DNA of 34,246 nt. Source: a virus. Taxonomy: Duplodnaviria > Heunggongvirae > Uroviricota > Caudoviricetes. The notes below the pieces were generated by a model. It had not been told where the DNA came from. It saw only the letters and a program-made list of their open reading frames with translations, and did no database searches. The number at the start of each line of letters is the position of its first letter. Position 1 is the stretch's first letter. The DNA lies in IMG/VR virus record IMGVR_UViG_2529292882_000018, positions 1 to 34,246 of that record. One strand, 5' to 3'. The translations under genes and the position numbers were made by a program. This document shows positions 1,725 to 34,246 of the stretch, in pieces.

Positions 1725-1907
1725 TTACCACACCTCTGCGGTAATCTTTACTTTAATGTCATACTTCTTTAAGAGTTTGTGGAAGGTTGATTGATCAATA
1801 CCTTCACCTTTAAACCATTCACCCATCACTACATCAGGTGTCAGTTCAAAATAACGCTTTGCCATTTCTAAAACGATTTCACGAGTGAACTTAACAGGTC
1901 GTGCCAT
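1725..1907 (-). CDS. small putative HTH DNA-binding protein
   Basis: 60-aa ORF with AGGAGG RBS; shares RP..F ... GI..STF..LKKYDIK pattern with the protein at 5281-5514 (paralogs). Confidence 0.5.
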   Translation of the reverse strand: MARPVKFTREIVLEMAKRYFELTPDVVMGEWFKGEGIDQSTFHKLLKKYDIKVKITAEVW

Positions 1908-2813: not shown

Positions 2814-3036
2814 AAACTAGATGATACTAGATGGTCTTAGAAGGAATTAACTAGTTTGCTCGCTCGCTTCGCTCACTCTCAAACGTCTGCGACGCCACTG
2901 CGTGGCATCGAGAATCACTTCTGAAAGGATTTTCTTGAAAGGGATTTTAAACTAGTTACTAACTGATTCTAGAAAGATAGTAATAATCACTTTGAAGATA
3001 ATAGTAGTTAACTGGTTACTAGATGATTCTAGATCA
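2814..3036. repeat. three copies of a ~20-27 bp CTAG-rich element (core ACTAG-TGAT-CTAGA)
   Basis: Copies at about 2814-2844, 2949-2976 and 3009-3036; eight CTAG tetranucleotides within roughly 250 bp of non-coding DNA. Confidence 0.55.
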
Positions 3037-3293
3037 CTTTAATGATCATGAAAGGTATTGGTATCCCTTCGGGATTGCAACCTTCGGTTGCTAAATTGCT
3101 TCCTAATTATTATTTCTCCAAAAGAAAGATTCTTATATTCTAAAGATACTTCTTCGTTTTGATGATGATTTAATCAAAATCTATGAAGGAGGCGAAGCCG
3201 ACTGAATACCAATTCCTTTCAAATTAGACAAAAATTTCTCGTTATAAATAATAGTGAACTTACTTTGATTCACTTTTTTAGAGGATTTCCACT

Positions 3294-3746
3294 ATGATCA
3301 ATACTAAAACTCCTTTCATTCTTCTGGGTCTGAACCATGATGATAATCTGGCTATGATGCATGTTTTCGCTAATCGTGGTTATAACATCATTCGTCATTC
3401 CGAAGACTCCAATTTCTCAACTGCTTTCTATGCTCTTAAACGTAATGGTCGCCCTACGGTGATCGTAGACTGCTTTACTGATGAAGGTCGTGAACAATAC
3501 AACAACATTCCGGCAATTATTGTTCGTGATGACCTGCCGTTTGATGTTCGTGAATATGACGTTGATTTAGGCTCTTACTATGGGATCGCCGATCTTGACC
3601 AGATTATGGCTGATTACGGTAAACAACCCGCTCAGGAAGCCCCAGAACACGATGAACAAGACGAAGATGACGACGACTACACACCAATCTGTTTCTCTTC
3701 TCACGGTGGCTTCTACGGTTACGATGAAGGCTTAGATATGCTGTAA
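3294..3746 (+). CDS. acidic hypothetical protein
   Basis: 150-aa ORF; strongly acidic with C-terminal EHDEQDEDDDDY run; leader shares a 22-bp element with the gene at 30200. Confidence 0.6.
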   Translation: MINTKTPFILLGLNHDDNLAMMHVFANRGYNIIRHSEDSNFSTAFYALKRNGRPTVIVDCFTDEGREQYNNIPAIIVRDDLPFDVREYDVDLGSYYGIADLDQIMADYGKQPAQEAPEHDEQDEDDDDYTPICFSSHGGFYGYDEGLDML

Positions 3747-6234: not shown

Positions 6235-8139
6235 ATGAAACTGATTTCTAATAAGGCCAAATTAAAAAAGATTCTCAGAAATGCAGCCAAATATATTACG
6301 CCACCGCCTAAACTCCTTCCTTCGGAATGGTGCGAAGCGAATATGGTGCTGGTAGATGGTCCTCAAGCTGGGGATAAAGTTAAATTGCTGTCATTTCAGA
6401 AAGGCATGATTGATGCTCCTTTCCTTGAGAACAAGAAAAAGTATGTTCTGATGACCAGTGCGCAGATCGGAAAGACTACCATCTTGAACGGCATCCTGTT
6501 TAACCAGATGGCTAACGATCCATGCAATATGATTATCGGACAATCAACCGCTAAAGAAATGTCTCAATATCTCGCTGGTAAGATCCGACCGTCTATCGAA
6601 GCATGTGATGCATTAAAAGACGTGGTTACAGACAAGAATGATCGCAATGCGGTTAACAACAATAACCAGCTACAGCTAAAAACGAATCACTTCCTTTACA
6701 TGGTATCGCTTACCAGTCCATCAACCCTACGCGGTAAGACCGCAAAGGTTGGATTACTTGACGAAATCGATGCTGCTACAGCCTCAGAAGAAGGTGATCC
6801 GGTGGCACTGGCTGCTAACCGTTTAACTACCTTTGGCGATGAAGGTCGATTAGTCGTATCCAGTACCCCGACCAGTAAGCTGGGAAGCATTAACCAGCAA
6901 TGGTTATCAAGTGATATGCGTATGTTTTTTGTTCCGTGTCCTCATTGCGGGGAACACCAGGTGATCGAGTGGGAAAACGTTCAATTTGAATGGCGTAACA
7001 TCGATGGTAAGAACTTACCCGATCCTGATACCGCTCGTTATATTTGCCCCCACTGTAAGAACGCATGGACCGAAGGGGAACGAATCAGGGCAGTAGCGCA
7101 AGGCGAGTGGAGAGCAACCCGTGAAAGTGAAGTAGCAGGATTCTGGATTAGCCGTCTGTATTCACCTTTCAGTAGTATCCGCGCTTGTGTGGTTGATTTT
7201 AGTCATGCGTGGCAATCCTTTGATTTACAATCATTTTATAACACCGTGTTAGGTAAGGTATACGACGATCAGGACACGGCAGTAGAAGCAAATGAACTGG
7301 AACAACTCAAAACAGATGTTTCTATCGAGAATATCCCTGATGACGTGATTTTCTTATGTGCGGGTACTGACCAGCAATTAGATCGCGCAGAAACTACCAT
7401 CTTAGGTGTAGCGAAAGATAAGGTTTACATTCTGGATCACCGCAGCTTTTACGATCATAACTGTGAACGATATGAATCCCCTGTATGGGATAGATTAATC
7501 AACTTCCATAAAACCAAATTTACTACTGTATCGGGTGATCGTGTTCCTATGCTCGCCAGCTTCCTTGATACATCGAACGGTCGATTCACTCAAGCTGGAT
7601 ACCGTATTTGCGGCAAGTGGAAGAACTTACACGCTATCAAAGGTAGTTCTGCTGGTAACGCTCCGATCATTCCGGTTAAACCTACCCGCACAGGTGGTCA
7701 TGAATTGCTTATGTTGGGTGTTAACGTGGGTAAAACTGCATTTCGTGAAATGTTGGCTAGGAACCTGAAAGATAATCCTCATATTGCCTTAGAAATATCA
7801 GACACCGTTCCTGATGATTATCTCGATCAGCTTTTAAGTGAATCTGTTAAGCGTACTACTACTGGCGTGAGATGGGTAAAAAATCCAGGCGTTAGGAACG
7901 AGGCGCTCGACTGTGCCGTGTATGCTACAGCGGCTTCTCGCTACGTCCTTTCAAAAATGTCATGGGATAAACTCATCGCAATGAAAGACAGCTTAAACCG
8001 TGTTGTCGAAGAACCCGTAAAAGCTCCTAAATCGCAATCTAACGAGCAAACCGAAGAAACTAAGCCAATCACACGACCACAACGTAAAAACATCGCCAGA
8101 CGTCCAAATAGAGGCCGTAGTTGGGTAACATCGTTCTAA
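6235..8139 (+). CDS. terL: terminase large subunit, lambda GpA type
   Basis: 634-aa ORF; Walker A-like SAQIGKT; blocks [35 protein letters not shown] and [13 protein letters not shown] match lambda gpA blocks as I recall them. Confidence 0.9.
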
Positions 8140-8211
8140 TAACTCGCCGTCCTTCGGGGCGGCTTACTCCTAAATATTGTTAATCCAATAACAATTAAAT
8201 AAGGGGTAATT

Positions 8212-8709
8212 ATGAGTTTAGAACTAATTCCCTTAGTAATTCGTAAAGGCGAAAAAGTCACGCTTGCGAATGAAGAGGGTGTAACAATTCAGGTAGGAAA
8301 TAGTAATAAAGGTATCATTTATCAGGTTGATGATACTCCGGCTAATCATGAGATTAAAACCTTAGATTTTGCCGAAGGTAAATATACCATCGTAATAACT
8401 TTTGAAGAAGAACTGGTATCAATGCAGGAATTAACTGTTTTGCCAGTATTCGCCAAACAATCCAAAAAAGAATATCTGCGGGAAACTATCGCCATTTTGG
8501 AACAAGTCATCTTTTCTCGTTTATCTGGGGACGAAGCCGCATTATCTCAAATGACCGTGAAAGGGAATACTTTCGCCTATGAGTCATTGGGTGTTCTCCA
8601 GCAATTGAAGACTGATTATGAACGTCAGTTATCTAAATTAATTCAAGCCGAACGACGTAAACAGGGAATTAGCCCGATTAAAAATATCAAATTACGTCTT
8701 ACGCGATAA
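8212..8709 (+). CDS. hypothetical protein (head-assembly position)
   Basis: 165-aa ORF with AAGGGGTAAT RBS, between terminase and portal. Confidence 0.55.
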   Translation: MSLELIPLVIRKGEKVTLANEEGVTIQVGNSNKGIIYQVDDTPANHEIKTLDFAEGKYTIVITFEEELVSMQELTVLPVFAKQSKKEYLRETIAILEQVIFSRLSGDEAALSQMTVKGNTFAYESLGVLQQLKTDYERQLSKLIQAERRKQGISPIKNIKLRLTR

Positions 8710-8719
8710 GGGGTAAATC

Positions 8720-10231
8720 ATGTTTAATCTTTTTCGACGCAAAAAGGCGGTAGAAACTCCAGTTAAAACTAATCACCGCCAGCAACAACCAAAAATTTTC
8801 ATCGACAAACAAGTAGAAAAATTCCAGAAAGATTTGTCTAAGCGTTCTTTGGGCTTAGTTGGTGATCGCATTGATGGATCGCTTCAACAAGATACCATTA
8901 CAGGAACCTTCAATAAGGCTCTCAAATCGAACGGTAAGCGCCTTTATGATCAGGGTCGTACTCTGGCTATAAACAATGCTGTAGGTAAGCGATACAAGCA
9001 GTATATCGTTGACCAAGTTGTTGGCACGGGGCTTGATCCGAAGCCATCAATCGTTAAATCAAATGGCAAACTTGACACCGCACTGAATAAGCAAATCGAG
9101 AATGCTTTCTGGAAGTGGGCGCAGAGTGCTAAACGCTTCTCTCGCAACGGTCGCTTTAACTTCCGTGAAATGCTGGCAATGGCAGAATCTGAACGTGTTC
9201 AGGGTGGAGAATGTTTCATCGTTTTAACCAAAGAAAACAACGAGTTACAAGTTTCTATTCTGTCTGCTGATAGGTGTGACTGGTCGCTTAGTCGTGAAAT
9301 AAGCAAAGACCGCGCGATCTATCAAGGGATTGAGTATGACGTAGAAACAATGCGCCCTGTAGCATACTGGTTTAGAAAAATCAATCTACTGACTCAGACC
9401 TACACTGGCGAAAATTATCGCGTAGATGCTTCTCAGGTGTGCCACTACTACCAGCCACTGTGCGCGGAAAGTTTACGTGGCGTGACTGACTTCCTGCCAG
9501 TGATTAAGGATATCGCACATCAAGACGCATTCCGCGAAGCTGTACTGGTCATGAAACGAATTTCAGCTTGTAACATGGCGTTCATCGAGCGTCCGAAAGA
9601 TTCTGGTGACGATTTTGATACTGGTGAAGATGATGAACAGTATCAAGCGCCAGAAGTTATTCACGATTTCGCGCCAGGTACTATTCAGGAATTACCGGAA
9701 GGGGCAACGATTAAATCAATCCAATCTACTCAATCAGGCGATGATTTTAACAGCTTCAATGATGCGATGTTTACTAGCGTATCAATGGGATTGGGCGTGT
9801 TCAAACAGGGCTTGACTGGTGATACTTCCCAGATCAACTACTCAGCCGCACGTTTCGGTGAATTAACCCAGCGCACACGAGTTAAAGCACTGCAAAACAA
9901 ATTAATTGAAACAGTGGTATTGCCAATTTTCGAAGCATATCTACGCCATTATTCCGCGCGTGGTATTGTTCCGATTCGTATTACTGCAATTCCGCATATT
10001 ATCGATAATACAACTATTATCCGTCCGCGTTTTGAATCCGTCGATCCATTTAAAGACGTAAGCGCCGAGATTGCTTTAATTGATAACGGACTTAAATCAC
10101 GTACTGCCGTTATATTAGAACGTGGTGATGATCCTGAAAAAGTATTCTCAGAGATTCAAGCCGAAAAGAGCGCACTAAATATTATCGTTGATGGTGAGGG
10201 TGAAGAAAAAAATTCCCCAGCCGATCCCTAA
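8720..10231 (+). CDS. portal protein (by position and size)
   Basis: 503-aa ORF directly between large terminase and prohead protease/capsid; strong RBS. Confidence 0.75.
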   Translation: MFNLFRRKKAVETPVKTNHRQQQPKIFIDKQVEKFQKDLSKRSLGLVGDRIDGSLQQDTITGTFNKALKSNGKRLYDQGRTLAINNAVGKRYKQYIVDQVVGTGLDPKPSIVKSNGKLDTALNKQIENAFWKWAQSAKRFSRNGRFNFREMLAMAESERVQGGECFIVLTKENNELQVSILSADRCDWSLSREISKDRAIYQGIEYDVETMRPVAYWFRKINLLTQTYTGENYRVDASQVCHYYQPLCAESLRGVTDFLPVIKDIAHQDAFREAVLVMKRISACNMAFIERPKDSGDDFDTGEDDEQYQAPEVIHDFAPGTIQELPEGATIKSIQSTQSGDDFNSFNDAMFTSVSMGLGVFKQGLTGDTSQINYSAARFGELTQRTRVKALQNKLIETVVLPIFEAYLRHYSARGIVPIRITAIPHIIDNTTIIRPRFESVDPFKDVSAEIALIDNGLKSRTAVILERGDDPEKVFSEIQAEKSALNIIVDGEGEEKNSPADP

Positions 10232-12277: not shown

Positions 12278-12420
12278 ACTAGCGTAGAACCTTCTGAACC
12301 TTCCCCCGATTTGGGGGAAGAAAATCTGATTCCATCTCAGGAAGAAGAATCCCAGACGGTTACGGCGAAAGCCACAGCTAAAAAGGTGGGACGTCCACCG
12401 AAAGCAAAATAATAATAATT

Positions 12421-12448
12421 AGCCCTGCCTAACGGTGGGGCTTTTTTG
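12421..12448 (+). terminator. intrinsic terminator after capsid region
   Basis: AGCCCTGCC-TAAC-GGTGGGGCT hairpin followed by TTTTTT. Confidence 0.7.
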
Positions 12449-12477
12449 TATGTAAATACTCCATAAAGGGGGTAACT

Positions 12478-14092: not shown

Positions 14093-17000
14093 ATGCAATC
14101 AATCCAATTTAAACGAACTAATGTTTCTGGCAAAAAGCCAACGCCGGAACAATTACAGGTCGGTGAGGTGGCAATCAACCTTAAAGACCATGTTATTTTT
14201 ACCAAAGACCGAGATCATGAAGTAGTTCAAATCTCTGTTTCTCCTGAAACTCACGCGGCACTAGAATCTAAAGTTGATGCTAACAAACAAGAATTGGATA
14301 GCACAATTGCAGTAAATGACCGCAATATTCACGCTAAAGTAGATGAAATTAAACAAACTACTGATTCTACTATCGCAGCAAATCATGCAGAAATTAACAA
14401 TAAAGTTGATGTAATTAAACGCGAAACCGACGCGACAATCGAAGCTAATAAAAATAAAGCTGCTTCCGATCTTGCTGGTGTTAAAGCTGAATTGTCGGAT
14501 ACCATCAACGCTAATAAAAATGCGGCTGCTGTAGCAACTCAGGAACTGGACACCCGCATCAATAAAAAAGTTGATGATATTAAATCCCGTACAGATGCAA
14601 CCATCGCAAGCAATGACAAAGCAATCAATGACAAAGTTGATTTGATTAAGACAGAAACTGACCGCACTATCGCAGCAAATAAAGTCTATGCGGAAAATCA
14701 GTTAACTGACACCTACAATAACCTTACTGGTGTGATTGCAGCTAATAAGCAAGAGGCAGCGGATAACGTTGCGGCATTAACCCGTGATGTTGAAGCCAAA
14801 AATACAGCAATTCATAGCAAAGTTGACAATAACAAGTCTTACACTGATTCTGAACTGGCACGTTTAGAAAGCCGTATTGATGCAGCCGATGGATCTGCTG
14901 ATGGCAAGTACATCAAAAAACACGTAAACACTTATACTGATGGTTATTTGCTGTCTAAGACCGCAAACTATTTTGATGATCCAAATGCGCGTAATCTTGA
15001 TTACTTTGGTGCATTCCGCATGAATGACCTGGCGGGTCATATTGCAATGATCTTGCATGTTCCGCATCCATCTGGTGTTAATCATGCTCGTGGCTTTGAG
15101 TTCACTTATGGGTCTAATCCACATGCTACTGTAAGAACATACGGCTATGATGAATTAGGTAATTTGTCATATTCTCACCGCATGTATCATGAAGGTGATA
15201 AACCTACTCCGGCTGAAATTGGCGCATATTCGAAAGCAGAAATTGACCGGATGTTCCAGAAGACCATCAACTTTGGTGTAGAAACTGGATGGTTTAAAAT
15301 TGCTACCGCCTTTATTCCGCAAAATGACGGACGTAGCTTGAAAATTAGATTGATTGGTGGAAATGGGTGGAACGTAGGACAAACTGGACAATGTAATATT
15401 ATTGAACTTGTTATAAGGACTAGCAACGGTTCGCCTAAAGGAATTAACTTTGTTGCGTATCATCATGTTTCTGGTTACGAAAATCAATTTTGTGCCATTA
15501 ATACAGGTGATGACACTTATGATATCTATGCATATTACTTCGAATTTACTAATATGGTAATGGCTGAATATCAAGCGTCCAGCGATGTTAATTTAACTGT
15601 ACTTGATCGACCTGAATATGTAGGCGATAAACCTGTAGCTGACCATATCTATGATGCATATACAATACACTCCTTTAACAGTTTCAGTAACCGTGGAACG
15701 TTAAATTTTGCTGGAAACCATCAAGGCCAATATGACATTGAGCATATGAACGAACAACCGACAAATGCTAAAAAGATGTTGCGTCGGTTTAGAAGCTCTG
15801 CCCTCGCGACAATCTGGCATGAAACCGTTGATGATAACGCATATCGTCTTGCCACTGGCGGTACAGATTCAGGTCAACAATTATTGCTGACAACAACCGG
15901 GTTACATGTCAAGAGATTAACATTGGATGGCGGTGCTGCGGGTGGAAATGCTGGTATTGATATTCGTCGAGGACCAAACGAAGCAAGCCATTTTAATTTT
16001 ATGGATTATCGCACTGGTCAAGATGTTCGTAATGGCTGGTTTGGTTTTGGTGATTTGACGACCAAAGATTTTATTTGGTGTAACGATAACGGTCAAAACT
16101 CGATAAACTTGATTGAAAACGGTGAATTACATATTACTGGTGGTAAAGGCCAGAAAATTGTAATGAATAGCGAAGTCGCATTGTCTGAAAATGCTCGTTT
16201 GGCTGTTAAAGGTGGTAATTATGGCTTAATTTTTAGAAATGATGGTACTAGTTTCCATATACTGACTACCGATTTAAAAGATTCTTTTGGAAATTGGAAT
16301 AATCGTAGACCATTCAGCTATGATTTCGCCGAAGGTGGATTAGATCTAGGTGGCACAACGACCGAACGCTGTTTACATCTGGGAATTGATGGTAGTACCC
16401 GCATCGAGGAGAACTTAGTTTTCCGATCTGGGTCGCGTCAATCAATGGACTATATTGAAATGATCCATTGGGGTAACAGTAATATCGCTCGTGACAACGT
16501 TTTGAGTATGAAAGACTCAAAAGGATTCCTTGCTGAATTTGAACGAGTGGGTGGGACTAACGGCGTTAAAACCAGATTCTTTGGTGAAACATTCACTGAT
16601 GGTACATTATACCTAAATCAGATGAATAATAGCTCTGAACGATTCTCTATCAACAATTGGGGAAATTCAGAAGTTGGACGCGCGGCAGTAATGGAAATCG
16701 GCGATTCCAAAGGTTATCACTTCTATACGGAACGTAGAACAGATAACAGTTTGATGTTTGATGTTGCTGGCGCTTTTACTGTGCATGGACCTAGCGGGAT
16801 CACTATCAAAAACTCTGATGGTGCTCGTCACATCTGGTTTAGAGATAACAGCGATACAGAAAAGGCTGTTATCTGGGCTACAGATGAGGGTATTTTACAT
16901 ATTCGCAATAACCACGGTGGACAATTTAGTCATCACTTCCAGGGTGCAATGATTAAAGCGGGAGAGCGTGTTCCATATAATAGTGAATACGCTCTTATCC

Positions 17001-17602
17001 GTGGTGATATTTCCGGTGGTGCATGGGTAGACTGGCGAGCGCGTCCGGCTGGATTGTTGGTAGACTGTCAGGACTCACGAAATCAAGCATATAACATTTG
17101 GAAAGCTACTCATTGGGGCGAACAGCACCTTGCGGCGATGGGTGTTCATGCTGGCGGTGGTAATCCTCATGTTGTATTGCATGTGGGTGGGAATGATTAT
17201 GCATTTGCATTTAACGGTGATTTTACTGCTGGTGCTGCTGTATATTGTAACGACGTTTATATTCGTTCTGACCGTCGTCTGAAAATTAATGTTGAAGACT
17301 ACGAAGAGAATGCGGTGGATAAGGTAAATAAACTCAAAGTTAAAACCTATGATAAAGTTAAATCTCTTTCTGACCGCGAAGTTATCGGCCATGAGATTGG
17401 TATTATCGCACAGGATTTGCAAGAAGTATTACCGGAAGCTGTTAGCACTTCTAGTGTCGGATCTCAGGATAACCCAGAAGAAATTTTAACAATTTCAAAC
17501 TCCGCAGTGAACGCGCTTTTAATTAAAGCGGTCCAAGAAATGAGCGAAGAAAATAAAATCCTTCGTGAACGTCTTGCTGCAATTGAGGCTAAATTAGGGT
17601 AA
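14093..17602 (+). CDS. side tail fibre / tailspike-like protein with C-terminal intramolecular chaperone (S74-type) domain
   Basis: 1169 aa; N-terminal tandem ~21-aa KVD..IK..TD.TIAAN repeats; C-terminal SDRRLKINVED...IGIIAQDLQEV... matches the auto-cleaving chaperone domain known from T5 L-shaped fibre and K1F endosialidase. Confidence 0.8.
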   Translation: MQSIQFKRTNVSGKKPTPEQLQVGEVAINLKDHVIFTKDRDHEVVQISVSPETHAALESKVDANKQELDSTIAVNDRNIHAKVDEIKQTTDSTIAANHAEINNKVDVIKRETDATIEANKNKAASDLAGVKAELSDTINANKNAAAVATQELDTRINKKVDDIKSRTDATIASNDKAINDKVDLIKTETDRTIAANKVYAENQLTDTYNNLTGVIAANKQEAADNVAALTRDVEAKNTAIHSKVDNNKSYTDSELARLESRIDAADGSADGKYIKKHVNTYTDGYLLSKTANYFDDPNARNLDYFGAFRMNDLAGHIAMILHVPHPSGVNHARGFEFTYGSNPHATVRTYGYDELGNLSYSHRMYHEGDKPTPAEIGAYSKAEIDRMFQKTINFGVETGWFKIATAFIPQNDGRSLKIRLIGGNGWNVGQTGQCNIIELVIRTSNGSPKGINFVAYHHVSGYENQFCAINTGDDTYDIYAYYFEFTNMVMAEYQASSDVNLTVLDRPEYVGDKPVADHIYDAYTIHSFNSFSNRGTLNFAGNHQGQYDIEHMNEQPTNAKKMLRRFRSSALATIWHETVDDNAYRLATGGTDSGQQLLLTTTGLHVKRLTLDGGAAGGNAGIDIRRGPNEASHFNFMDYRTGQDVRNGWFGFGDLTTKDFIWCNDNGQNSINLIENGELHITGGKGQKIVMNSEVALSENARLAVKGGNYGLIFRNDGTSFHILTTDLKDSFGNWNNRRPFSYDFAEGGLDLGGTTTERCLHLGIDGSTRIEENLVFRSGSRQSMDYIEMIHWGNSNIARDNVLSMKDSKGFLAEFERVGGTNGVKTRFFGETFTDGTLYLNQMNNSSERFSINNWGNSEVGRAAVMEIGDSKGYHFYTERRTDNSLMFDVAGAFTVHGPSGITIKNSDGARHIWFRDNSDTEKAVIWATDEGILHIRNNHGGQFSHHFQGAMIKAGERVPYNSEYALIRGDISGGAWVDWRARPAGLLVDCQDSRNQAYNIWKATHWGEQHLAAMGVHAGGGNPHVVLHVGGNDYAFAFNGDFTAGAAVYCNDVYIRSDRRLKINVEDYEENAVDKVNKLKVKTYDKVKSLSDREVIGHEIGIIAQDLQEVLPEAVSTSSVGSQDNPEEILTISNSAVNALLIKAVQEMSEENKILRERLAAIEAKLG

Positions 17603-17641
17603 TTGGAAAGCGGGGCGAAAATCCCCGCTAAGGATTCTTAT

Positions 17642-17938
17642 ATGGGATATTGGGTAAGTAGTGAAATTAATACTAAAATCGATGCTTTAAAATGGCATGT
17701 ATTTGATATTCCTAACGGCTATGGTACTGCTCGTGCTGGTGTCGCTGTAATGCGTCATAATGCTGGTGGTGGGTGGTCTGATGCACATATTAACGTAGAT
17801 GGTTTGACCGTTGCTCGTCGTCGTGGTGGGACCAATTGGGGATCTACTATAAATTCGTTTGTTCCTGCTGGCTGCACCGTCTCCTTTGGTTTAGGGGGTG
17901 AAGGTGGTGTTGAATATTTTAAATTCATGGAGTTTTAA
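17642..17938 (+). CDS. small Gly-rich protein, paralog 1 of 3
   Basis: Track ORF starts at TTG 17603 inside a hairpin; ATG 17642 with AAGGA RBS gives MGYWV...FDIPNGYG. Confidence 0.55.
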   Translation: MGYWVSSEINTKIDALKWHVFDIPNGYGTARAGVAVMRHNAGGGWSDAHINVDGLTVARRRGGTNWGSTINSFVPAGCTVSFGLGGEGGVEYFKFMEF

Positions 17939-17940
17939 TT

Positions 17941-18246
17941 ATGGCTGGATGGATAAATCAAAGAATGTCAAACGCTATTAGTATTTGGGCTAATGGTGGA
18001 TATTTTGATATCCCCAACGGTTGGGTCACTGATTCATGCGGAATTGTCTTTGCTCATATGGAAGCCATTAACGGTGCTGGTGATCTTGATTCTGAATTGG
18101 CTGTAAATGGATTGATTGAATCAGGTCATCATGCTGGTGATGCTGGGAGTTGGGGCGCTAGTTCTTTAGTTGGCGCTGGTGCTACCGTTAGCTTTACATT
18201 GGGTAAAGGTAGTTTGCATTATTTCAAATTCAGGAGAATGCACTAA
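17941..18246 (+). CDS. small Gly-rich protein, paralog 2 of 3
   Basis: 101 aa, MAGWI...FDIPNGWV; DNA-level similarity to neighbours around the GATATTCCTAACGG block. Confidence 0.55.
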   Translation: MAGWINQRMSNAISIWANGGYFDIPNGWVTDSCGIVFAHMEAINGAGDLDSELAVNGLIESGHHAGDAGSWGASSLVGAGATVSFTLGKGSLHYFKFRRMH

Positions 18247-18548
18247 TGGCATTTTGGGTAGATGGCGCTTTGGGGAATAGGGCGGGTAAAGCAAATCAAG
18301 GATGGTTTGATATTCCTAACGGGTGGACAGCCGACGCTTTCGGGACTATTTCATTTTCCGCTCATTCTTCCGGTGGTGGCGGTGGTGACTCTGAATTGCT
18401 TATTCATGGTTTGTGTGTTTCTGGAAGTCATAAGGGTCATGATTGGGGACAGATTCATTCTTGTATTGCACCGCAAGGGGCGGTAATTACCGTTAGCACG
18501 AATAGAGGGATTGCTCATCTTCGTTATAGACGCTTGAGCAACCGCTAA
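18246..18548 (+). CDS. small Gly-rich protein, paralog 3 of 3
   Basis: 100 aa, MAFWV...FDIPNGWT; start overlaps previous stop (TAATG); AGGAG RBS. Confidence 0.55.
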   Translation: MAFWVDGALGNRAGKANQGWFDIPNGWTADAFGTISFSAHSSGGGGGDSELLIHGLCVSGSHKGHDWGQIHSCIAPQGAVITVSTNRGIAHLRYRRLSNR

Positions 18549-18602
18549 ATAAATAGAATTACGGGTATGTGCCCTATTGTTTAAAATAGAAGGAAAAGAA
18601 TA

Positions 18603-27889: not shown

Positions 27890-28168
27890 ATGACTGAAAT
27901 TATATATGGCGGTATCGGTGTTATCGCCTTAATTTGTGGTGGATTATGGAGACTTCACCGAAATCAATTAGCCACAGAAAATAGATTGTCGAAATTAGAA
28001 TCCAGCGACGCATTGTTAAACCAGAAGTTTGAGACGATGCAGAATAACCATACTCAGATCGCCGAGAGAGTTTATCGCATGGAACAAACCCTTCACGGTA
28101 TAGAAAAGAAAGTGGTTGCGATGGACGCTAAATTTGACCAAGTTCTCGACATACTCAAACAAAAATAA
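27890..28168 (+). CDS. membrane-anchored coiled-coil protein (lysis-associated candidate)
   Basis: Track ORF starts at GTG 27821 inside the terminator; ATG 27890 with GGGGG RBS gives MTEIIYGGIGVIALICGGLW (TM segment) followed by a helical region. Confidence 0.45.
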   Translation: MTEIIYGGIGVIALICGGLWRLHRNQLATENRLSKLESSDALLNQKFETMQNNHTQIAERVYRMEQTLHGIEKKVVAMDAKFDQVLDILKQK

Positions 28169-28186
28169 TAATAAAGGGGTGAATAT

Positions 28187-28357
28187 ATGAAGAATAAACT
28201 TAAGAAATATTTTGGTTATCTCTTGATTGTCGCCCTCACTTATAACGTAGCAATTAGACCTCTGCTAACGTCCTTTGGGCTTGAACTCCCGGCTATGACC
28301 GTGGATGAACAATTGCTAAGGACACTGGCGGGGGTCTTTTCGTTATTAGGGGGCTAA
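28187..28357 (+). CDS. small membrane protein, holin candidate (not in ORF track)
   Basis: 56-codon ORF with AAAGGGGTGA RBS; MKNKLKKYFGYLLIVALTYNVAI... contains hydrophobic stretches; stop abuts next gene start. Confidence 0.35.
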   Translation: MKNKLKKYFGYLLIVALTYNVAIRPLLTSFGLELPAMTVDEQLLRTLAGVFSLLGG

Positions 28358-28358
28358 C

Positions 28359-29042
28359 ATGGCAACCAGTACCAATAAACGAAACGCTCTAAGGACTAAG
28401 AAAGCGTTGAGGCAATGGTCTGAAAAGGCAACAGATACATTCGAAAGGGCACTAGGGGAAGGGGCGATCTTTGCTTCCAGAGCACTCCAGAAGAAGATTA
28501 ACAAGAATGTTGATAGACCTACTCGCTGGACTCAGCAAGCTGTAGGTAATACCAACTACAAGAACCGATCAGGGACGAGACACCAAATCTTCATCAAGGG
28601 TGCAAGGGATAAGGATAAGAAGATCGGCAGTCAGGACGACTATCTGAAACACTATTTCGATGGTGGCAAAATCAATAAGCTAGTTCCAATCGCCAACGGT
28701 AAGGTCTTAGACGCTCACGGGAACATTAAGGCCATCAAAGGCGGTAAGATGATGCGTAACCTCGAAAACGGCAACTTCATCAAGGTAGAGAACAAGGAAG
28801 GGACTTTTATCATGAAGAAGTACAAGCCTAAGAAATCCCGAACCAAACGCGCTAGGAATGGATCGGCGGTGGCAAAACGTCGCTTAGAGAAACGCATACA
28901 GAAACAGAGCAAGCGAATTGTTGCCGTTAAATCGGATAAAATTTCTACTCGTTATTCGACGCTAGGATCGTGGGAAAGCAACGAAGCAATGATGCTTGAA
29001 AACATCAATAAGCACATTAAATCGCGCATGAAATACGTTTAA
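28359..29042 (+). CDS. highly basic hypothetical protein
   Basis: 227-aa ORF, Lys/Arg-rich throughout. Confidence 0.5.
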   Translation: MATSTNKRNALRTKKALRQWSEKATDTFERALGEGAIFASRALQKKINKNVDRPTRWTQQAVGNTNYKNRSGTRHQIFIKGARDKDKKIGSQDDYLKHYFDGGKINKLVPIANGKVLDAHGNIKAIKGGKMMRNLENGNFIKVENKEGTFIMKKYKPKKSRTKRARNGSAVAKRRLEKRIQKQSKRIVAVKSDKISTRYSTLGSWESNEAMMLENINKHIKSRMKYV

Positions 29043-29080
29043 TCAATAAATACCCTCATAGAATCTTATGGGGGTATAAC

Positions 29081-29428
29081 ATGGCTAAAAATATTTTCAC
29101 TGAATTTCCTACTTATCCGGTCGATCAGCTTTCCGGTATTTTTATTAATGGCATTAGCCCAGAATCTATGACACATGATTTTGAGGCGAAGAGAGTTAAA
29201 CATAAACAATATAAAGAATGTATCCGCGATCATGAAAAAGGGACCGTGTTTTGTGTCGCTACATTGGCTAAACGTCCTAAGTATCGTTTTCGTGTAGGAC
29301 AAGAAGTTGATGTGGTTAATCCTTATAGCTTTAACTGTCTGGGCGATGCACGCGCGGTGTGTGTAGGCACTGCTCCTTATTATATCAAGGGTATGCGCTT
29401 TATTGGTTATATCTTCGAAATGATCTAA
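29081..29428 (+). CDS. hypothetical protein
   Basis: 115-aa ORF. Confidence 0.5.
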   Translation: MAKNIFTEFPTYPVDQLSGIFINGISPESMTHDFEAKRVKHKQYKECIRDHEKGTVFCVATLAKRPKYRFRVGQEVDVVNPYSFNCLGDARAVCVGTAPYYIKGMRFIGYIFEMI

Positions 29429-29437
29429 GGGGGTAAT

Positions 29438-29791
29438 ATGTTAAGTAAGCATTTTTCTCGCAAGGAATTTAAATGTAAATGCGGAAAATGTGATTATGAT
29501 ACAATCGACGCTGAATTACTGGTGATTCTTGAGGATGTACGAGAGCACTTCGGTAAACCAGTGATTATTAACAGTGGCAACCGTTGCCCGACTCATAACA
29601 AGAATGTAGGCGGGGCAGCCAATAGCTATCACGTTCGAGGCCGCGCGGCTGACATTGTTATCAAGGGTGTCTCGCCTGATATTGTTCATGCTTATCTTGA
29701 TGGGAAATATCCTACTCAATACGGCTTAGGAAAATATAAAACCTTTACGCATATTGATTCCAGATCAAAAAAATCACGGTGGAATGGATAA
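29438..29791 (+). CDS. endolysin, peptidase M15-type
   Basis: 117 aa; SGNRCPTHNKNVGGAANSYHVRGRAADI and THIDSR fit the zinc-binding H/D/H pattern of M15 peptidase endolysins. Confidence 0.8.
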   Translation: MLSKHFSRKEFKCKCGKCDYDTIDAELLVILEDVREHFGKPVIINSGNRCPTHNKNVGGAANSYHVRGRAADIVIKGVSPDIVHAYLDGKYPTQYGLGKYKTFTHIDSRSKKSRWNG

Positions 29792-30155
29792 AACAAAAGC
29801 GCCTCTGGTGGGCGCTTTTTTGTTAGAATATGCTGGCGACGTTAGCTATATTTCTGACCATTTTTTCATTATAGACAAATATACCGCAGATGATAAAGTG
29901 GTATTCGACGAAGTTGATCCGTCTCTGGTTGAAGCAATGAAAGAACCTGAGATCGTCATTGAAGAAACAAAAGAAGAATCTCCGGCAATTGAACCAGTGG
30001 TCGAAGAAGTTACGTCAGATGTTGAAGAAGCACCGGAAGTTAAAGTAGAATCTCCGGTAGCAAACATTTTCTCTGACGAAGCAGAGCATCGTTCTCCTGC
30101 ACATGATACTGATTCATTTTGTGATCTTACTGGTTTCCAAAACTACAATAATTAA
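29754..30155 (+). CDS. acidic Glu/Pro/Val-rich hypothetical protein, start uncertain
   Basis: Track ORF starts at TTG 29754 and runs through the terminator; in-frame GTG 29898 or ATG 29937 are alternative starts. Confidence 0.35.
   Translation: MIPDQKNHGGMDKTKAPLVGAFLLEYAGDVSYISDHFFIIDKYTADDKVVFDEVDPSLVEAMKEPEIVIEETKEESPAIEPVVEEVTSDVEEAPEVKVESPVANIFSDEAEHRSPAHDTDSFCDLTGFQNYNN
29798..29822 (+). terminator. intrinsic terminator after endolysin
   Basis: AGCGCC-TCTGGTG-GGCGCT hairpin followed by TTTTTTG. Confidence 0.75.
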
Positions 30156-30199
30156 TTCTTATAAATAGTAGTGAACTTATTATTTTCGAGGACACTACT

Positions 30200-31198
30200 A
30201 TGAATACTACTTTAGCAAAGGATATCGAATTTACCACAAAAAGCAAACGTGCGACCCCTCCGGTCGAATATGAAACCAGAATCATTAAAGTTTGTCAAGT
30301 GCATGGGTGGTTATACAGTGGTTTTGTGCTTCCTGTAAAGAAACCATTCCAGAACACCAAAGTTTGCATAGAAGTTAACGGAAAGGTTAAAACGCCATGT
30401 ATTAGTCATGTTCTAACTGGTCAGTTTACTGGCAAAGATAGAGTATCACCGCCTAAGAAGAAGTTTAGATTTACCGAAGAAGAACACTTAGAAAACGCTC
30501 GCAAGTTCTACAAGCCGATAGGGTGGGATGTGTTAGGTCTGGCTGAACCTTATCAGGGTGTTGACACTAAACTAATTCTTCGTTGTAAGTGCCACGGAAA
30601 GATTCACAAGAAAGGTGATTTACACAATAACCGCAGACAAGGCGGGTTAACATGCCCTTTGGTTAGGGGTGTACTTAAATCAATTCAGAATGGTAGAAAA
30701 CAGGTTATCAGAAACAAGTTTGCACAGCGCCCTATGCACTTTTATCTAATTCGTGTTGGCGAGAAGTTTTTCAAATATGGAATTACCACTCGCAAAGATC
30801 CGATGCAACGGGTAAGAGAACACCAGAAGCACACCAGCGAGAAAATCACCTTTGAATGCTCACATTTGTTTAACATTGGATGGAAAGCTGGTGATTTAGA
30901 AATGGGGATTAAAAAGAATATTCAGGGCAAGAAAATCCCACGTAAGGTAATGAATAGCGGATTCACAGAAACGCTACCGATTAGCAAGTTGAAAGATGTT
31001 AAATCATTCATCAATGAATACATCCACACCAACCCATCTAAGCCAATGTATTTTGATGATACCAACGCAATCAATCTGAACAACTACATTAGTGATGAAG
31101 ACATAGAACGAGATTTATCGCAGTGGATGAATGCACCGTTAGCTGATTTAACACCGGAAGACTTAGAACTCGATTTAAGCCCTTTAGAGGCTCTTTAA
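30200..31198 (+). CDS. Cys/His-rich protein with GIY-YIG-like (T5orf172-like) segment
   Basis: 332 aa; FYLIRVGEKFFKYGITTR...RVREHQ resembles the GIY-YIG core; N-terminal Cys/His clusters suggest zinc binding; leader shares 22-bp element with gene at 3294. Confidence 0.5.
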   Translation: MNTTLAKDIEFTTKSKRATPPVEYETRIIKVCQVHGWLYSGFVLPVKKPFQNTKVCIEVNGKVKTPCISHVLTGQFTGKDRVSPPKKKFRFTEEEHLENARKFYKPIGWDVLGLAEPYQGVDTKLILRCKCHGKIHKKGDLHNNRRQGGLTCPLVRGVLKSIQNGRKQVIRNKFAQRPMHFYLIRVGEKFFKYGITTRKDPMQRVREHQKHTSEKITFECSHLFNIGWKAGDLEMGIKKNIQGKKIPRKVMNSGFTETLPISKLKDVKSFINEYIHTNPSKPMYFDDTNAINLNNYISDEDIERDLSQWMNAPLADLTPEDLELDLSPLEAL

Positions 31199-31213
31199 TA
31201 CAATTAAATTAAA

Positions 31214-31235
31214 AAGGGGTACAGATGTACCCCTT
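31214..31235 (-). terminator. perfect 10-bp inverted repeat AAGGGGTACA-GA-TGTACCCCTT, probable terminator of recombinase gene
   Basis: Lies between converging genes; on minus transcript the hairpin is followed by TTTTAATTTAATT. Confidence 0.5.
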
Positions 31236-31271
31236 AAAGTGTTTAGCTCGTTATACGTCGATTTAGGCCGC

Positions 31272-32951
31272 TTAAATTCCAAATTCCTGTAATGGACCTG
31301 GTATTTCCTCTTCTGGTTTCCAGTTCTTATCTGTCAGCATGTCTAAACATGGATGCAAAACAAGCCCGTTACTTTCCAGAATCTGTCTATCATTGATAGT
31401 TTTCAAATCAATGAATATCCGGCCTTTCCTCGTTCCTCTTGAATTTTCTATTACAACTCTCTGGGTCTTTCCATCGATGTATTCCAGTACAAACAAGTTT
31501 TTGTTTCTGTCAATCCTGCTACACCCGATCCGCTTTAGAGCTTGCTTAATCTTAAACCGGACCTTTAGTCGTTCCTCGTTATAAACATCTTCTAAATCAA
31601 ATTCTGCGAGCTTCTCCCAGCCTTGAGAGTCCACAGAATACATTTCCTCTTCTGCCATCTTGATCTGATTGTAGAGTGTTTCACGCTCGCTATTGAGGGT
31701 AGTAATCTGATCGGCTAGCTCCTTCGTTGCTCCTGTCATAGCAGAAAGGGCAATCAGGTTATCAATCTTGCGTGATATCTCATCAACCTGTACTTTCAAA
31801 GCCGGAACCGGATTAGCCTTATCCTCAGCAATCCAGATTTTATCAGCCAGCAATTGCAATACAGCTTTCTCTAATTGATCCCCTCGAAAACTCCAGTTTG
31901 GATGCTCGCAATCAAGTCTACGTGAACGGGTCGCATCACATGTATAACGATACTGGTCAGAACGTTTGTTTGTTCCCTTCACTTTAACCATAGCGCAACC
32001 GCAATGATCACATTTCAATAGGCCAATGCCACTAAGCAGGGGGATCGGTTTAGCTTCTTCCTTGTCTCCAAAGTTCCATGCTCTAGCACCAATATTTTTC
32101 TTAAGGTGATAGAACGTAGCATCATCAATAACACGAGGGTAATAATCCTTTAACTCATAGTTAACGCCATCTACAGAGACTTCCTTGATACCAATCAAAG
32201 CGCGGGTATGGAACAACCTTTCAACCATTGCCCGTGACCATTTTGAATGCTTCTTATTACTAACCGCTGGTGGCGGTGTATATGTCTCGTTAAGGTGATC
32301 CAGTATTTCGGCGGTTGAACGTCCATTCTTCCGTAATTCCACAATCTCCTGAACAACAGGGAAGTACACCGGATGAGGCAGCACATAACCGGAAGTGGTA
32401 TCAGTCCACCACATATTCTTTCCAACTTCCTCGATAGCCACTGCCGGATTTTGTGGATTTTCTTGATGAGCTTTAATCTTAATCAATGCGCTTGAGTTAG
32501 TACGATTGCGCTTAGTCTGGCTTTCCTCATTACCACGGATGAATAAAAGGATGGAGAACATCAGGTCCATCGGGTTAGCGGTAACAGTATCCAGCGAGTA
32601 GATCTTGTTATCCATGCCAGTAACAATGGTTATTCCCCTACGGATGATTGAAAGGAATAACTCCTGCGCACTGACAATATCGGCACGGGATAAACGGTCC
32701 AAGTTTTCGATGAATAGCCAGCTACCAACAGGAACGGATCTACCTATTGCATCAAGGAAACGAGATAGCGCCCCTGTTTTGGAGTTAGCACCTTTAAACG
32801 CAGATACACCCAGATCCTGATAATCATTTACCAGTTCAAGGTCATACTTTGCCGCAATCTCTCTCGCCATCCTGATTTGTCGTTCATAACTCGAACCATC
32901 ATTCTGACGCATAGACGAGAAGCGAATATACGAATATAGTTTAGTTTTCAT
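31272..32951 (-). CDS. large serine recombinase
   Basis: 559 aa; N-terminal YIRFSSMRQ serine-recombinase catalytic motif and ENLDRLSR block; CDHCGC...C...C zinc-ribbon; C-terminal coiled-coil. Confidence 0.85.
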   Translation of the reverse strand: MKTKLYSYIRFSSMRQNDGSSYERQIRMAREIAAKYDLELVNDYQDLGVSAFKGANSKTGALSRFLDAIGRSVPVGSWLFIENLDRLSRADIVSAQELFLSIIRRGITIVTGMDNKIYSLDTVTANPMDLMFSILLFIRGNEESQTKRNRTNSSALIKIKAHQENPQNPAVAIEEVGKNMWWTDTTSGYVLPHPVYFPVVQEIVELRKNGRSTAEILDHLNETYTPPPAVSNKKHSKWSRAMVERLFHTRALIGIKEVSVDGVNYELKDYYPRVIDDATFYHLKKNIGARAWNFGDKEEAKPIPLLSGIGLLKCDHCGCAMVKVKGTNKRSDQYRYTCDATRSRRLDCEHPNWSFRGDQLEKAVLQLLADKIWIAEDKANPVPALKVQVDEISRKIDNLIALSAMTGATKELADQITTLNSERETLYNQIKMAEEEMYSVDSQGWEKLAEFDLEDVYNEERLKVRFKIKQALKRIGCSRIDRNKNLFVLEYIDGKTQRVVIENSRGTRKGRIFIDLKTINDRQILESNGLVLHPCLDMLTDKNWKPEEEIPGPLQEFGI

Positions 32952-32960
32952 ACCATTTCC

Positions 32961-33000
32961 AAAACAAAAAGCCCCTACCGCGTATTATAACGATAGGGGC
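32961..33000 (-). terminator. intrinsic terminator for minus-strand gene 33017-33262
   Basis: GCCCCTA...TAGGGGC hairpin preceded on + strand by AAAACAAAAA. Confidence 0.65.
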
Positions 33001-33016
33001 ATTGGTTAGTAAGTCA

Positions 33017-33262
33017 TTAATATTTCTTTCCAGTTAGTTTTGCATCACGTTTATTAATATCCTCGATATGACTCCATACACACGCAGTAATAAAGTCGTC
33101 ATCGTCACCAACTCCGGCAACCTGTGCTAATTCAGTACACAGTTGATTTAAAGAAGGTGCAACGGCAGCACGCTTGACACTATCACCCTGTACATATTGT
33201 TCGGCATTTGCAGCACCAACCAAACCCAGAGCAAGAACAACACCCGCGATAATCTTTTTCAT
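33017..33262 (-). CDS. small secreted/periplasmic protein
   Basis: 81 aa; N-terminal MKKIIAGVVLALGLVGAANA signal-peptide-like segment, two Cys, DDDD run. Confidence 0.55.
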   Translation of the reverse strand: MKKIIAGVVLALGLVGAANAEQYVQGDSVKRAAVAPSLNQLCTELAQVAGVGDDDDFITACVWSHIEDINKRDAKLTGKKY

Positions 33263-33307
33263 AGTAGAATTTCCTCTTGTTATTTGAATTACGATATATT
33301 TATATCG

Positions 33308-33433
33308 TTAAAAATTGATGCTAATTACCAGACCAAACACAACCGCACCAATCAAATCAATCCAGTTAATACACAATCCGCTATATTCTTTCTTGAATGT
33401 CTTAGATGAAATGCCATCATGAAATTGTTTCAT
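33308..33433 (-). CDS. 41-aa peptide with C-terminal hydrophobic segment (not in ORF track)
   Basis: Hand translation MKQFHDGISSKTFKKEYSGLCINWIDLIGAVVFGLVISINF; GGGGTG upstream; start is 4 nt from upstream peptide stop. Confidence 0.35.
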   Translation of the reverse strand: MKQFHDGISSKTFKKEYSGLCINWIDLIGAVVFGLVISINF

Positions 33434-33436
33434 TGC

Positions 33437-33517
33437 TCACCCCATACTAACGACAAGATAAGAAAGACTAATCATAGTTGTGAGACTACCTCCCACGAAT
33501 GAGATAAAAGCTAACAT
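33437..33517 (-). CDS. 26-aa hydrophobic peptide (not in ORF track)
   Basis: Hand translation MLAFISFVGGSLTTMISLSYLVVSMG; GGAGA RBS 7 nt upstream. Confidence 0.3.
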   Translation of the reverse strand: MLAFISFVGGSLTTMISLSYLVVSMG

Positions 33518-33534
33518 GTTTGATTCTCCAGTTT

Positions 33535-33560
33535 AAAAAGCGGTGGGAATTGCACCCACC
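33535..33560 (-). terminator. intrinsic terminator after gene 33575-33961
   Basis: GGTGGG-AATTGCA-CCCACC hairpin preceded on + strand by AAAAAG. Confidence 0.65.
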
Positions 33561-33574
33561 AAATTAGAAATTAA

Positions 33575-33961
33575 TTAAGCGCGAACGATGGTCAGAGTAT
33601 CCAGCAAACCTTTTTCGTATAATTCGAAACACGTTTTATATTGCTCAATCTGGAAACCATAGCGGGTGATCTTATTCAGTAGGACAATCGCGCTATTCTC
33701 ATCTAGGTATTGTCCTTGCTTACCAATTACATATGACTCGCGGGATAGTTTCAGCTTACGGAAACCTTTAACACCTAATTCCTTAGCCACCGCTTTAATC
33801 TCTTTAATCTCACCCTCAGCCGCAACATATTCAGCGTCGATAATCTCAGGTGATGATCTCAGTGCTACCAGAACTAAGGCCATTGCTTCTTCTTCGGTAC
33901 GAGCAACACCAGCTTTCTCGAAAGTCATCTCACCAAATTTACGAATCATGATATTGAACAT
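33575..33961 (-). CDS. hypothetical protein
   Basis: 128-aa ORF. Confidence 0.55.
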   Translation of the reverse strand: MFNIMIRKFGEMTFEKAGVARTEEEAMALVLVALRSSPEIIDAEYVAAEGEIKEIKAVAKELGVKGFRKLKLSRESYVIGKQGQYLDENSAIVLLNKITRYGFQIEQYKTCFELYEKGLLDTLTIVRA

Positions 33962-33973
33962 TGTTTTGCTGCC

Positions 33974-34246
33974 TTACTTCTTGCTGATAAACTCTTTAGC
34001 GATAAAGTTGATTACTTCTTTCAGCTTCTTGTCTGTATCGATGCACGCCGGTAATTCTTCTTTAATCTCCTGCGGCAGATACACATTGCCTTTAAAGTGG
34101 AGGAAACCATCATTACCAATCATGTAGGAGAACATCCATTCACAATCGTTATCCGCTTCCCAGAACGCTACGGTCTCATCGCCAATCAAGGTAATGTCCA
34201 TGTTGCGACGTGCTGCGTAGTTGATGATTGCTTTGCCGATGTTCAT
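33974..34246 (-). CDS. hypothetical protein, may extend beyond window edge
   Basis: 90-aa ORF whose start codon is the last three bases of the window. Confidence 0.45.
   Translation of the reverse strand: MNIGKAIINYAARRNMDITLIGDETVAFWEADNDCEWMFSYMIGNDGFLHFKGNVYLPQEIKEELPACIDTDKKLKEVINFIAKEFISKK

Follow-up and report, generated by a model that had tools for sequence, protein, structure and literature searches.

A CapR/T5orf172-type nuclease gene and its T-even-derived flank in the endolysin-integrase slot of an Escherichia coli prophage family

The locus and its nuclease gene

The stretch of DNA considered here (IMG/VR virus record IMGVR_UViG_2529292882_000018, positions 1 to 34,246, the whole 34,246 nucleotides being referred to as the window) is an uncharacterised temperate siphovirus-type prophage of Escherichia coli with relatives in Salmonella and Proteus, and towards its right end it holds a gene which is predicted to encode a nuclease composed of CapR-like modules, a T5orf172-type core of the GIY-YIG superfamily and an acidic tail (Table 1). 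The gene is preceded by a GAGGA ribosome-binding site 9-13 nt 5' of its ATG, faces only open reading frames (ORFs) of 44-53 codons on the opposite strand and is always located between the endolysin gene and the gene of a large serine recombinase, with which it is convergent, this adjacency being invariant across genera. An earlier note on this DNA had described a 332-residue protein beside the recombinase, had ascribed to it Cys/His clusters, a segment resembling the GIY-YIG/T5orf172 nuclease core and a promoter-like element in common with an acidic early protein, and had read it as a homing-type nuclease or, alternatively, as a nuclease for host takeover or anti-defence; the ORF was recovered exactly as described there.

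Table 1. Coordinates of the nuclease gene, its parts and its neighbouring features in the window
Feature	Position	Strand	Description
Acidic ORF	29784..30155	+	123 residues from ATG; chimera of 33 prophage-specific residues, Krischvirus Inh codons ~84-169 and QNYNN before the stop
Promoter-like motif	30160..30176	+	TATAAATAGTAGTGAAC; 24-40 bp 5' of the nuclease ATG
Nuclease gene	30200..31198	+	332 residues, ATG start; CapR-like modules, T5orf172/GIY-YIG core, acidic tail
Module 1	30257..30424	+	residues ~20-75; degenerate CapR-like alpha-beta-beta-beta; helix 21-35, strands 38-43, 54-59, 62-64; pLDDT ~90
Module 2	30476..30661	+	residues ~93-154; CapR homology domain with C129/C131/H132/C152 cluster
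T5orf172-type GIY-YIG core	30731..31033	+	residues ~178-278; Y182, K192-Y-G194, R204, E234, K238, G254-F-T-E257-T
Disordered acidic C-terminal tail	31130..31195	+	residues 311-332, ending ELDLSPLEAL; pLDDT ~40
GC-rich hairpin terminator	31214..31235	-	AAGGGGTACATCTGTACCCCTT, then T-run on the minus strand; between the convergent nuclease and integrase genes; kept in all alleles
Large serine recombinase (prophage integrase)	31272..32951	-	559 residues; Pfam Resolvase, Recombinase, Zn_ribbon_recom; phrog_95 integrase 5e-63

The protein matches the endonuclease profile phrog_681 (E 6.9e-20, residues 88-292) and, in a tblastn search, the T5.141 endonuclease with 27% identity (1e-8); an NCBIfam search of the nuclease gave no match. 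With a profile of 18 close homologues, 2,004 proteins were retrieved at E <= 1e-3 and 469 at <= 1e-10 from 1.84 billion cluster representatives, and Pfam annotation of the close homologues identified CapR in 17 of the 18 (best 4.7e-20), T5orf172 in eight, MUG113 in four and DUF723 in one, whereby matches to T5orf172 (best 6.4e-4) and MUG113 (best 1.5e-4) were counted up to E 1. Among 108 distant representatives CapR was found in 86 (best 4.6e-46), DUF4379 in 33, MUG113 in 27, DUF723 in 20 and T5orf172 in nine, the MUG113 and T5orf172 matches being counted here at E <= 1e-3; T5orf172 or MUG113 combined was recorded for 12/18 close and 36/108 distant family members. The protein is therefore assigned to T5orf172/MUG113 (GIY-YIG clan) by way of the transitive homology of its relatives. 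For the catalytic core, 161 representatives (mutually <= 50% identical) were aligned to a hidden Markov model of residues 172-282, and ten positions were found to be conserved, i.e., Y182 (in 155 of the 161), K192 (159), G194 (160), R204 (160), E234 (158), K238 (139), G254 (157), T256 (143), E257 (157) and T258 (155), all of which are present in the window nuclease. Its pattern FYL...KYGIT...R...GFTET is the T5orf172 version of GIY...YIG...R...E, and the T5orf172 core motif [FLI]-Y-[ILV]...K-[FYI]-G-[IV]-[TS]...R...G-x-T-E-T is represented by F181-Y182-L, K192-Y-G194-I-T, R204 and G254-F-T-E257-T. The nuclease-like segment noticed earlier is hereby located to residues ~178-278 with Tyr182, Arg204 and Glu257 intact; the two observations which the earlier note had named as speaking against the assignment, a missing profile match and catalytic Tyr/Arg/Glu positions that are not conserved, were both checked and neither was made. 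The CapR/T5orf172 class is typical of free-standing phage homing endonucleases, and the homing-type reading is supported by profiles and catalytic residues as well as by the replacement and deletion of alleles described below.

An AlphaFold2 model built from the 18-sequence alignment (mean predicted local distance difference test (pLDDT) 77.9; >= 90 over residues ~20-80 and ~180-280) comprises two alpha-beta-beta(-beta) modules (residues ~20-75 and ~93-154) and a beta-beta-alpha-beta-alpha core (residues 179-277), the latter being predicted to adopt the GIY-YIG fold, i.e., a three-stranded beta-sheet flanked by helices. Foldseek comparison with predicted viral structures (BFVD) gave 106 matches at E <= 1e-3, the named ones being CapR homology, zinc-ribbon, GIY-YIG, homing endonuclease and T5 Orf172 proteins; a Foldseek search of the PDB with the complete model yielded no significant match, which is to be expected as the model is multi-domain and resembles beads on a string. 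Module 1 has no conserved zinc ligand set, only C32 being invariant in the close family, and is a recognisable copy of module 2 (GW.Y.GF...TKV.I versus GWDVLG...TKLIL). Module 2 possesses a cluster of C129-K-C131-H132, H136 and C152, of which C129 and C152 are invariant and C131 is nearly invariant in the close family; the consensus of the wider family is CxxHG...GxxCPxC, whose last Cys, the canonical fourth, is Val155 in the window nuclease. As PLE CapR needs four Cys residues for DNA binding (PMC8096241), zinc binding appears plausible for module 2 only, and from the Zn-finger claim of the earlier note the Cys/His cluster of module 2 persists, while a complete four-ligand site and a ligand set in module 1 were not found.

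The acidic tail follows a consensus, [ED]-L-[DE]-L-[SE]-P-[LV]-x-[AST]-L, which is common to 21 of 166 relatives. All six tail-bearing relatives with context read (P0006, P0010, P0014, P0025, P0026 and P0034) are located in the same slot, with identities down to ~30% and differing module numbers; relatives at other sites are without the tail, as is the L010-type allele of the slot. The DNA coding for the tail is part of the conserved right flank, the right-hand homology arm for cassette swapping, with homology between divergent alleles setting in again at 31111-31184. The idea of the tail being merely the 3' remnant of an interrupted gene was rejected as sole explanation, since Salmonella, Proteus and architecturally different alleles all preserve it as a protein sequence.

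The motif upstream of the nuclease gene, TATAAATA(G/A)TAGTGA(A/G)C, occurs in three copies in the window (30160-30176(+), 3243-3259(+) and 1960-1976(-)), as compared to 0.45 expected by chance, and 2/100 shuffles reach three. A 16-17-nt element, (T)ATAAATA(G/A)TAGTGA(A/C)C, was identified ~24-45 bp 5' of every big-nuclease ATG, including those of Salmonella and Proteus, and is absent elsewhere in the compared nuclease-allele loci. The other two window copies point outward from an ORF-poor stretch of ~1.3 kb (1976-3243), which may be a phage regulatory or origin region: the copy on the minus strand precedes the ORF 1725..1907(-), which is followed by a 313-residue ORF, and the copy on the plus strand precedes an acidic 150-residue ORF (3294..3746) and then an Ant-like gene. 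The element said to be common to the nuclease gene and the acidic protein gene was thus borne out as a motif, which is suggested to act as a promoter; a generic sigma-70 scan revealed no enrichment (5 found versus 5.0 expected). The resemblance of TATAAATA to a T4 late promoter is seen in some alleles only and is probably coincidental, and its import together with T-even DNA is not supported, as other alleles have AATAAATA; the extended 16-nt motif recurs at two non-T-even prophage places.

Allelic variation and T-even-derived DNA at the slot

Of 5,426 complete E. coli genomes, 58 contain window positions 29000-33000 in their chromosomes, as the right-hand end of a prophage whose integration site is ycdX/ycdY-csgG or hicB-ydcR. 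Except for T-even-like patches no sequenced phage similar to the window was found, and the search for related loci gave nothing but near-identical prophage copies in viral contigs and zero relatives in a one-genome-per-species collection. Comparison of the endolysin-integrase slot among the 58 E. coli prophages revealed distinct allele classes. The window nuclease is carried at >= 90% identity by 18 genomes, among which L002 and L003 possess in addition a 193-residue mini CapR-T5orf172 gene on the opposite strand. A different class (L004, L009, L010 and others) holds a paralogue of 391-394 residues, a UvsW-like helicase (with or without UvsW.1) and a mini nuclease of 185-189 residues, and from about 15 genomes, grouped by the ~3.05-kb span of L008, which alone was inspected, the nuclease gene is absent.

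Between the window and L004/L010 the neighbouring proteins are 95-100% identical (with the exception of a 115-residue ORF in L004, 85%), whereas the nucleases share only 32-39% identity, and integrases that are 98-99% identical are hence paired with nucleases that are not. DNA homology between such divergent alleles resumes at 31111-31201, at or just inside the nuclease 3' end. In L008 a 65-residue ORF (MDKTK...KEPEDLELDLSQL, then stop) was found, in which ~70 bp of inh-derived DNA are fused in frame to the nuclease tail at a GAACC-GA microhomology. L008 was consequently rejected as a pristine empty site and is a deletion scar retaining inh' and tail remnants. The earlier note had proposed to check whether the gene is an insertion relative to related genomes, and a polymorphic cassette, replaced or deleted in prophages that are otherwise 95-100% identical, was indeed revealed, a pristine empty site was not. 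Across genera the nucleases share 51-61% identity and the endolysins and integrases 63-75%, the divergence being roughly in step.

The T-even segment beside the nuclease was outside the earlier note and is newly recognised here. Positions 29881-30138 (258 bp) are the only near-identical phage DNA in 28000-34246 and represent an in-frame internal fragment of inh, the gene for an inhibitor of prohead protease, with 98.1% identity to Makalu inh and 95-98% in ~60 Krischvirus-type T-even records. The extent of the inh piece differs between loci: L002 holds 361 bp (ORF from Inh codon 64 through ~169, ~97% to Krischvirus), L003 415 bp (codons ~49-186, 97.3% to Makalu and 99.0% to ECD7 and Whisky), L027 a 165-residue Inh_N ORF (86.5% to Krischvirus) and the Proteus locus L019 a diverged fragment of 146 residues (~73% over 60 bp), which shows the same right-hand junction (...CPWW / AACAAATTTTTCTCA / motif). 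For the Proteus inh', which was considered as a possible match to a Proteus T-even phage, no close phage match was present in the collection. Sister alleles furthermore contain uvsW.1-uvsW at 67-79% nucleotide identity and colinear with Krischvirus, with intact UvsW-like helicase regions in L004 (3480-5845), L024 (2447-4845), L026 (2428-4832, a uvsY fragment being held in addition) and L020 (3772-5846); the uvsW homology stops precisely with the uvsW start codon, and it is there that the mini CapR-T5orf172 nuclease of 185-193 residues begins. The gene order of Krischvirus is uvsY - uvsW.1 - uvsW - inh - hoc, the scar of L027 joins the uvsW.1 end to inh, and L002 and L003 show the order mini nuclease - inh' - big nuclease, their inh' being 97% identical to Makalu and in L003 up to 99% to other Krischviruses. 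Cargo from this one contiguous T-even segment is met repeatedly beside the nuclease, in E. coli as well as in Salmonella and Proteus. The simplest reading of these arrangements would be an ancestral island uvsY'-uvsW.1-uvsW-[mini nuclease]-inh'-[big nuclease], which decayed differently per lineage and whose inh' has in E. coli been recently refreshed or re-acquired from Krischviruses. Within this temperate phage family, which spans the three hosts, the island can be swapped while the nuclease gene stays in place as its fixed anchor. A Krischvirus carrying the nuclease beside inh was not found in the phage collection.

Several further observations concern the same phage family, whose genes include a GpA-type terminase, a lambda-type portal, a protease-capsid fusion, a tail-tip J-like protein, an M15 endolysin and an Ant-like anti-repressor. 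A second region of recent exchange with T-even phages is the tail fibre (window 14956-18564, i.e., the 1169-residue ORF 14093..17602 and downstream small ORFs), which shows 88-95% nucleotide identity to T-even long-tail-fibre gp37-type genes, with 3.4 kb at 93.6% shared with the Krischvirus-type G37-3. A related phage holds a tail-less CapR/DUF723-T5orf172 gene (P0018, 348 residues) between its protease-capsid and connector genes (L022/L023 6001-7047), where the window has a 200-bp intergenic gap (12278-12477), this being a second insertion polymorphism of the homing endonuclease gene (HEG) type in the lineage; in L024 an extra three-module CapR-T5orf172 gene without acidic tail (7981-9027 (-)) lies directly downstream of the serine recombinase. 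IS1 or IS2 is inserted in the endolysin-integrase slot of several related prophages (E. coli hits H119, H140 and H141), consistent with a dispensable accessory region. In PADLOC the mini nuclease, the inh' ORF and the P0014-type nuclease were without match. Downstream of the integrase an 81-residue ORF (33017-33262 (-)) with the signal-peptide-like start MKKIIAGVVLALGLVGAANA may represent a moron close to the end of the prophage that encodes a secreted protein or a lipoprotein.

Proposed function and competing explanations

Considering all of these findings, the best overall explanation, and a reasonably probable one, is that the gene encodes a modular site-specific CapR/T5orf172 endonuclease of the GIY-YIG superfamily, which acts on the DNA of co-resident phages. 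Binding to a specific DNA sequence would fall to the pair of CapR-like modules at the N-terminus, which are arranged like beads on a string and of which module 2 keeps the Cys/His cluster, and the flexibly linked T5orf172 core would cut nearby using Tyr182, Arg204 and the metal-binding Glu257. The resulting DNA break would provoke recombinational repair, and cutting may lead to homing-like gene conversion and/or exclusion. Site binding, nearby cutting and recombination are proposed from the family, i.e., from Odn and I-TevI-type enzymes (PMC8263062, PMC10448857). DNA of co-resident phages, likeliest the uvsW-inh region of Krischvirus-type T-even phages, is suggested as natural substrate because the 5' island consists of pieces of one T-even segment.

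A number of results weigh against this explanation. Taken alone, the protein stays below the Pfam gathering score for MUG113 (PF13455; 13.3 versus 22.3 bits, E 0.13, residues 192-273) and below the cut-off for CapR (PF21817; 16 versus 24.2 bits, E 0.014, residues 102-134), and T5orf172 (PF10544) was not reported for it in the Pfam scan; the profile search which had been proposed for the gene gave the phrog_681 match and matches at the family level, together with sub-threshold scores for the sequence itself. Phmmer and profile searches of PDB sequences gave nothing or a spurious STU2 match, and no defence model of PADLOC-DB 2.0 was matched, the only similarity being one of 22 core-motif residues to PD-Lambda-1 (E ~0.005). 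Homology to T-even DNA is confined to the 5' side of the nuclease, a one-sided arrangement that lends no support to classical homing into T-even phages by way of two arms; none of the T-even genomes within 50,697 phage records was found to carry anything related to the big or the mini nuclease at more than ~35% identity. As to the promoter-like motif, it belongs to the prophage itself and does not stem from T-even DNA. A pristine empty site was not encountered in the 58 E. coli prophages, whose sole "empty" allele is a deletion scar, and long-term retention at one locus across genera, with a divergence similar to that of the neighbours, agrees better with a domesticated role than with a selfish element of transient nature.

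The main rival explanation is a purely selfish free-standing HEG within this temperate family, which would cut sister endolysin-integrase alleles and copy itself in during co-infection or induction, the T-even pieces being unrelated mosaic debris. Such an element would account for the HEG-typical architecture, for allele replacement with breakpoints at the gene ends and for relatives at other HEG-typical sites of the same phage lineage, and since tail-fibre DNA is also swapped with T-even phages, mosaicism with these is general. However, no empty target allele but only the scar was met in the 58 prophages, cargo from one segment beside the nuclease in three genera is hard to ascribe to chance debris, and the conserved dedicated motif together with the slot-specific tail suggests integration into phage biology, so that this explanation is considered rather unlikely. 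Roles as regulator, integrase accessory or host-takeover nuclease are less likely. PLE CapR is an HEG-derived repressor (PMC8096241), I-TevI-type enzymes can autorepress, and the gene lies beside the integrase and has its motif in common with regulatory-region genes, all of which would be in line with a domesticated, non-cutting DNA-binding regulator tuning, e.g., integrase or invading-phage transcription; yet the full T5orf172 core is kept with every catalytic residue here and across the 161 representatives, and the same upstream motif is used by alleles with very different DNA-binding modules, making it unlikely to be the protein's own operator, and a regulator of this kind is judged very unlikely.

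An accessory of the serine integrase (e.g., a recombination directionality factor or an excision/replication nuclease), the tail of which would contact the integrase, is suggested by the invariant convergent adjacency to the recombinase and by the confinement of the tail to copies at this locus. Against it speak the about 15 E. coli prophages assigned to the gene-less class by the span of L008, the pairing of strongly diverged alleles with near-identical integrases and the tail-less L010-type allele; a precedent was not found in this analysis, and the role is regarded as highly improbable. Least probable of all appears a nuclease degrading host or defence-element DNA early in lytic growth, i.e., the host-takeover or anti-defence role, for which no specific support was obtained. 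The motif is in common with putative early or regulatory-region genes next to the Ant-like anti-repressor, but the sequence-specific beads-on-a-string architecture argues against bulk degradation, no link to a host target was found, and a conserved host target does not go with a DNA-binding part that is hypervariable among near-identical prophages from a single host species.

The reading of a nuclease acting on co-resident phage DNA can be extended to the entire slot, which might represent an anti-T-even locus built largely from T-even parts: a hypervariable nuclease driven by a promoter specific to the phage would cut the uvsW-inh region of incoming Krischvirus-type genomes, inh' and uvsW would either serve as sinks for recombination or supply T-even proteins in dominant-negative or mistimed form, repeated gene conversion with the phages under attack would explain why inh' is 97-99% identical, and the acidic tail would have a part in control or in interaction. 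This extension is speculative and, as a whole, unlikely. The type of enzyme is ordinary in itself, and it is the flanking T-even-derived island and the slot-specific tail which are worth experiment. The gene adds a prophage-borne branch to the CapR/T5orf172 nucleases, and a natural allele series (intact, swapped, deleted and with nested T-even remnants) is provided by sequenced strains of E. coli, Salmonella and Proteus, with candidate partners of the RB49/JSE/GEC-3S-type Krischviruses being easily obtained. Two questions thereby become testable, i.e., whether T5orf172 "HEGs" home or exclude, and whether nuclease genes are responsible for DNA traffic between virulent T-even and temperate phages outside the tail-fibre genes.

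Comparison with known systems

The architecture of zinc modules joined to a T5orf172 core was described for phage homing endonucleases, including those of ICP1 and T5-like phages and T5.141 (Barth et al. 2023, PMC10448857). With these the window nuclease has in common the repeated N-terminal zinc modules of the CapR/DUF723/DUF4379 type and the C-terminal T5orf172 core, as well as the location at a boundary of genetic exchange and the shuffling of domains and alleles. Most of those described reside in lytic phages near essential genes, whereas the window gene is part of a temperate prophage and lies by the integrase; its module 1 has lost the zinc ligands, its module 2 is without the fourth Cys, and the protein possesses a subfamily-specific N-terminal AKDI motif besides the acidic C-terminal tail, its identity to the phage examples being <= 35%. 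The origin-directed Odn (ICP1 Gp88) is an HEG-derived T5orf172 site-specific nuclease which one mobile element employs against another; it is the sole protein with a T5orf172 core to have been characterised biochemically, the core being there combined with a different DNA-binding domain, and both its function in vivo and site-specific cleavage in vitro are lost when the equivalent Glu is exchanged (E180A; PMC8263062). Odn and the window nuclease share the T5orf172 core with the conserved Arg and the catalytic Glu, and Odn thus provides the precedent for site-specific cleavage, but the modules of the window nuclease are CapR-like, the T-even-derived sequences lie beside its gene and not inside, and its target is a candidate only.

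PLE CapR, a 15.5-kDa repressor without nuclease core and with an intact CxxC...CxC zinc site (PMC8096241), has a homologous DNA-binding module (PF21817) and is likewise encoded on an integrated element, whereas the window protein keeps the whole nuclease core. In comparison with the GIY-YIG catalytic domains of I-TevI and SLX1, identity amounts to 11-16%, the DNA-binding domains differ, and the second motif is K-[FY]-G instead of Y-I-G, as is typical of T5orf172. The mini nuclease of the sister alleles resembles the free-standing GIY-YIG/HNH endonucleases of T4 (seg/mob) in being intergenic, as are the T4 seg genes. The HEG islands described so far exceed 10 kb and carry functional cargo (Barth et al. 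2023, PMC10448857). The sister alleles are similar to these in that their cargo (inh', uvsW) is bracketed by two T5orf172 genes and shows up to 99% identity with a distantly related phage, of which the window has one of the two nucleases and the 258-bp cargo remnant; in contrast to the described islands, the cargo is truncated and decaying, and the exchange crosses the divide between lytic Straboviridae and temperate siphoviruses.

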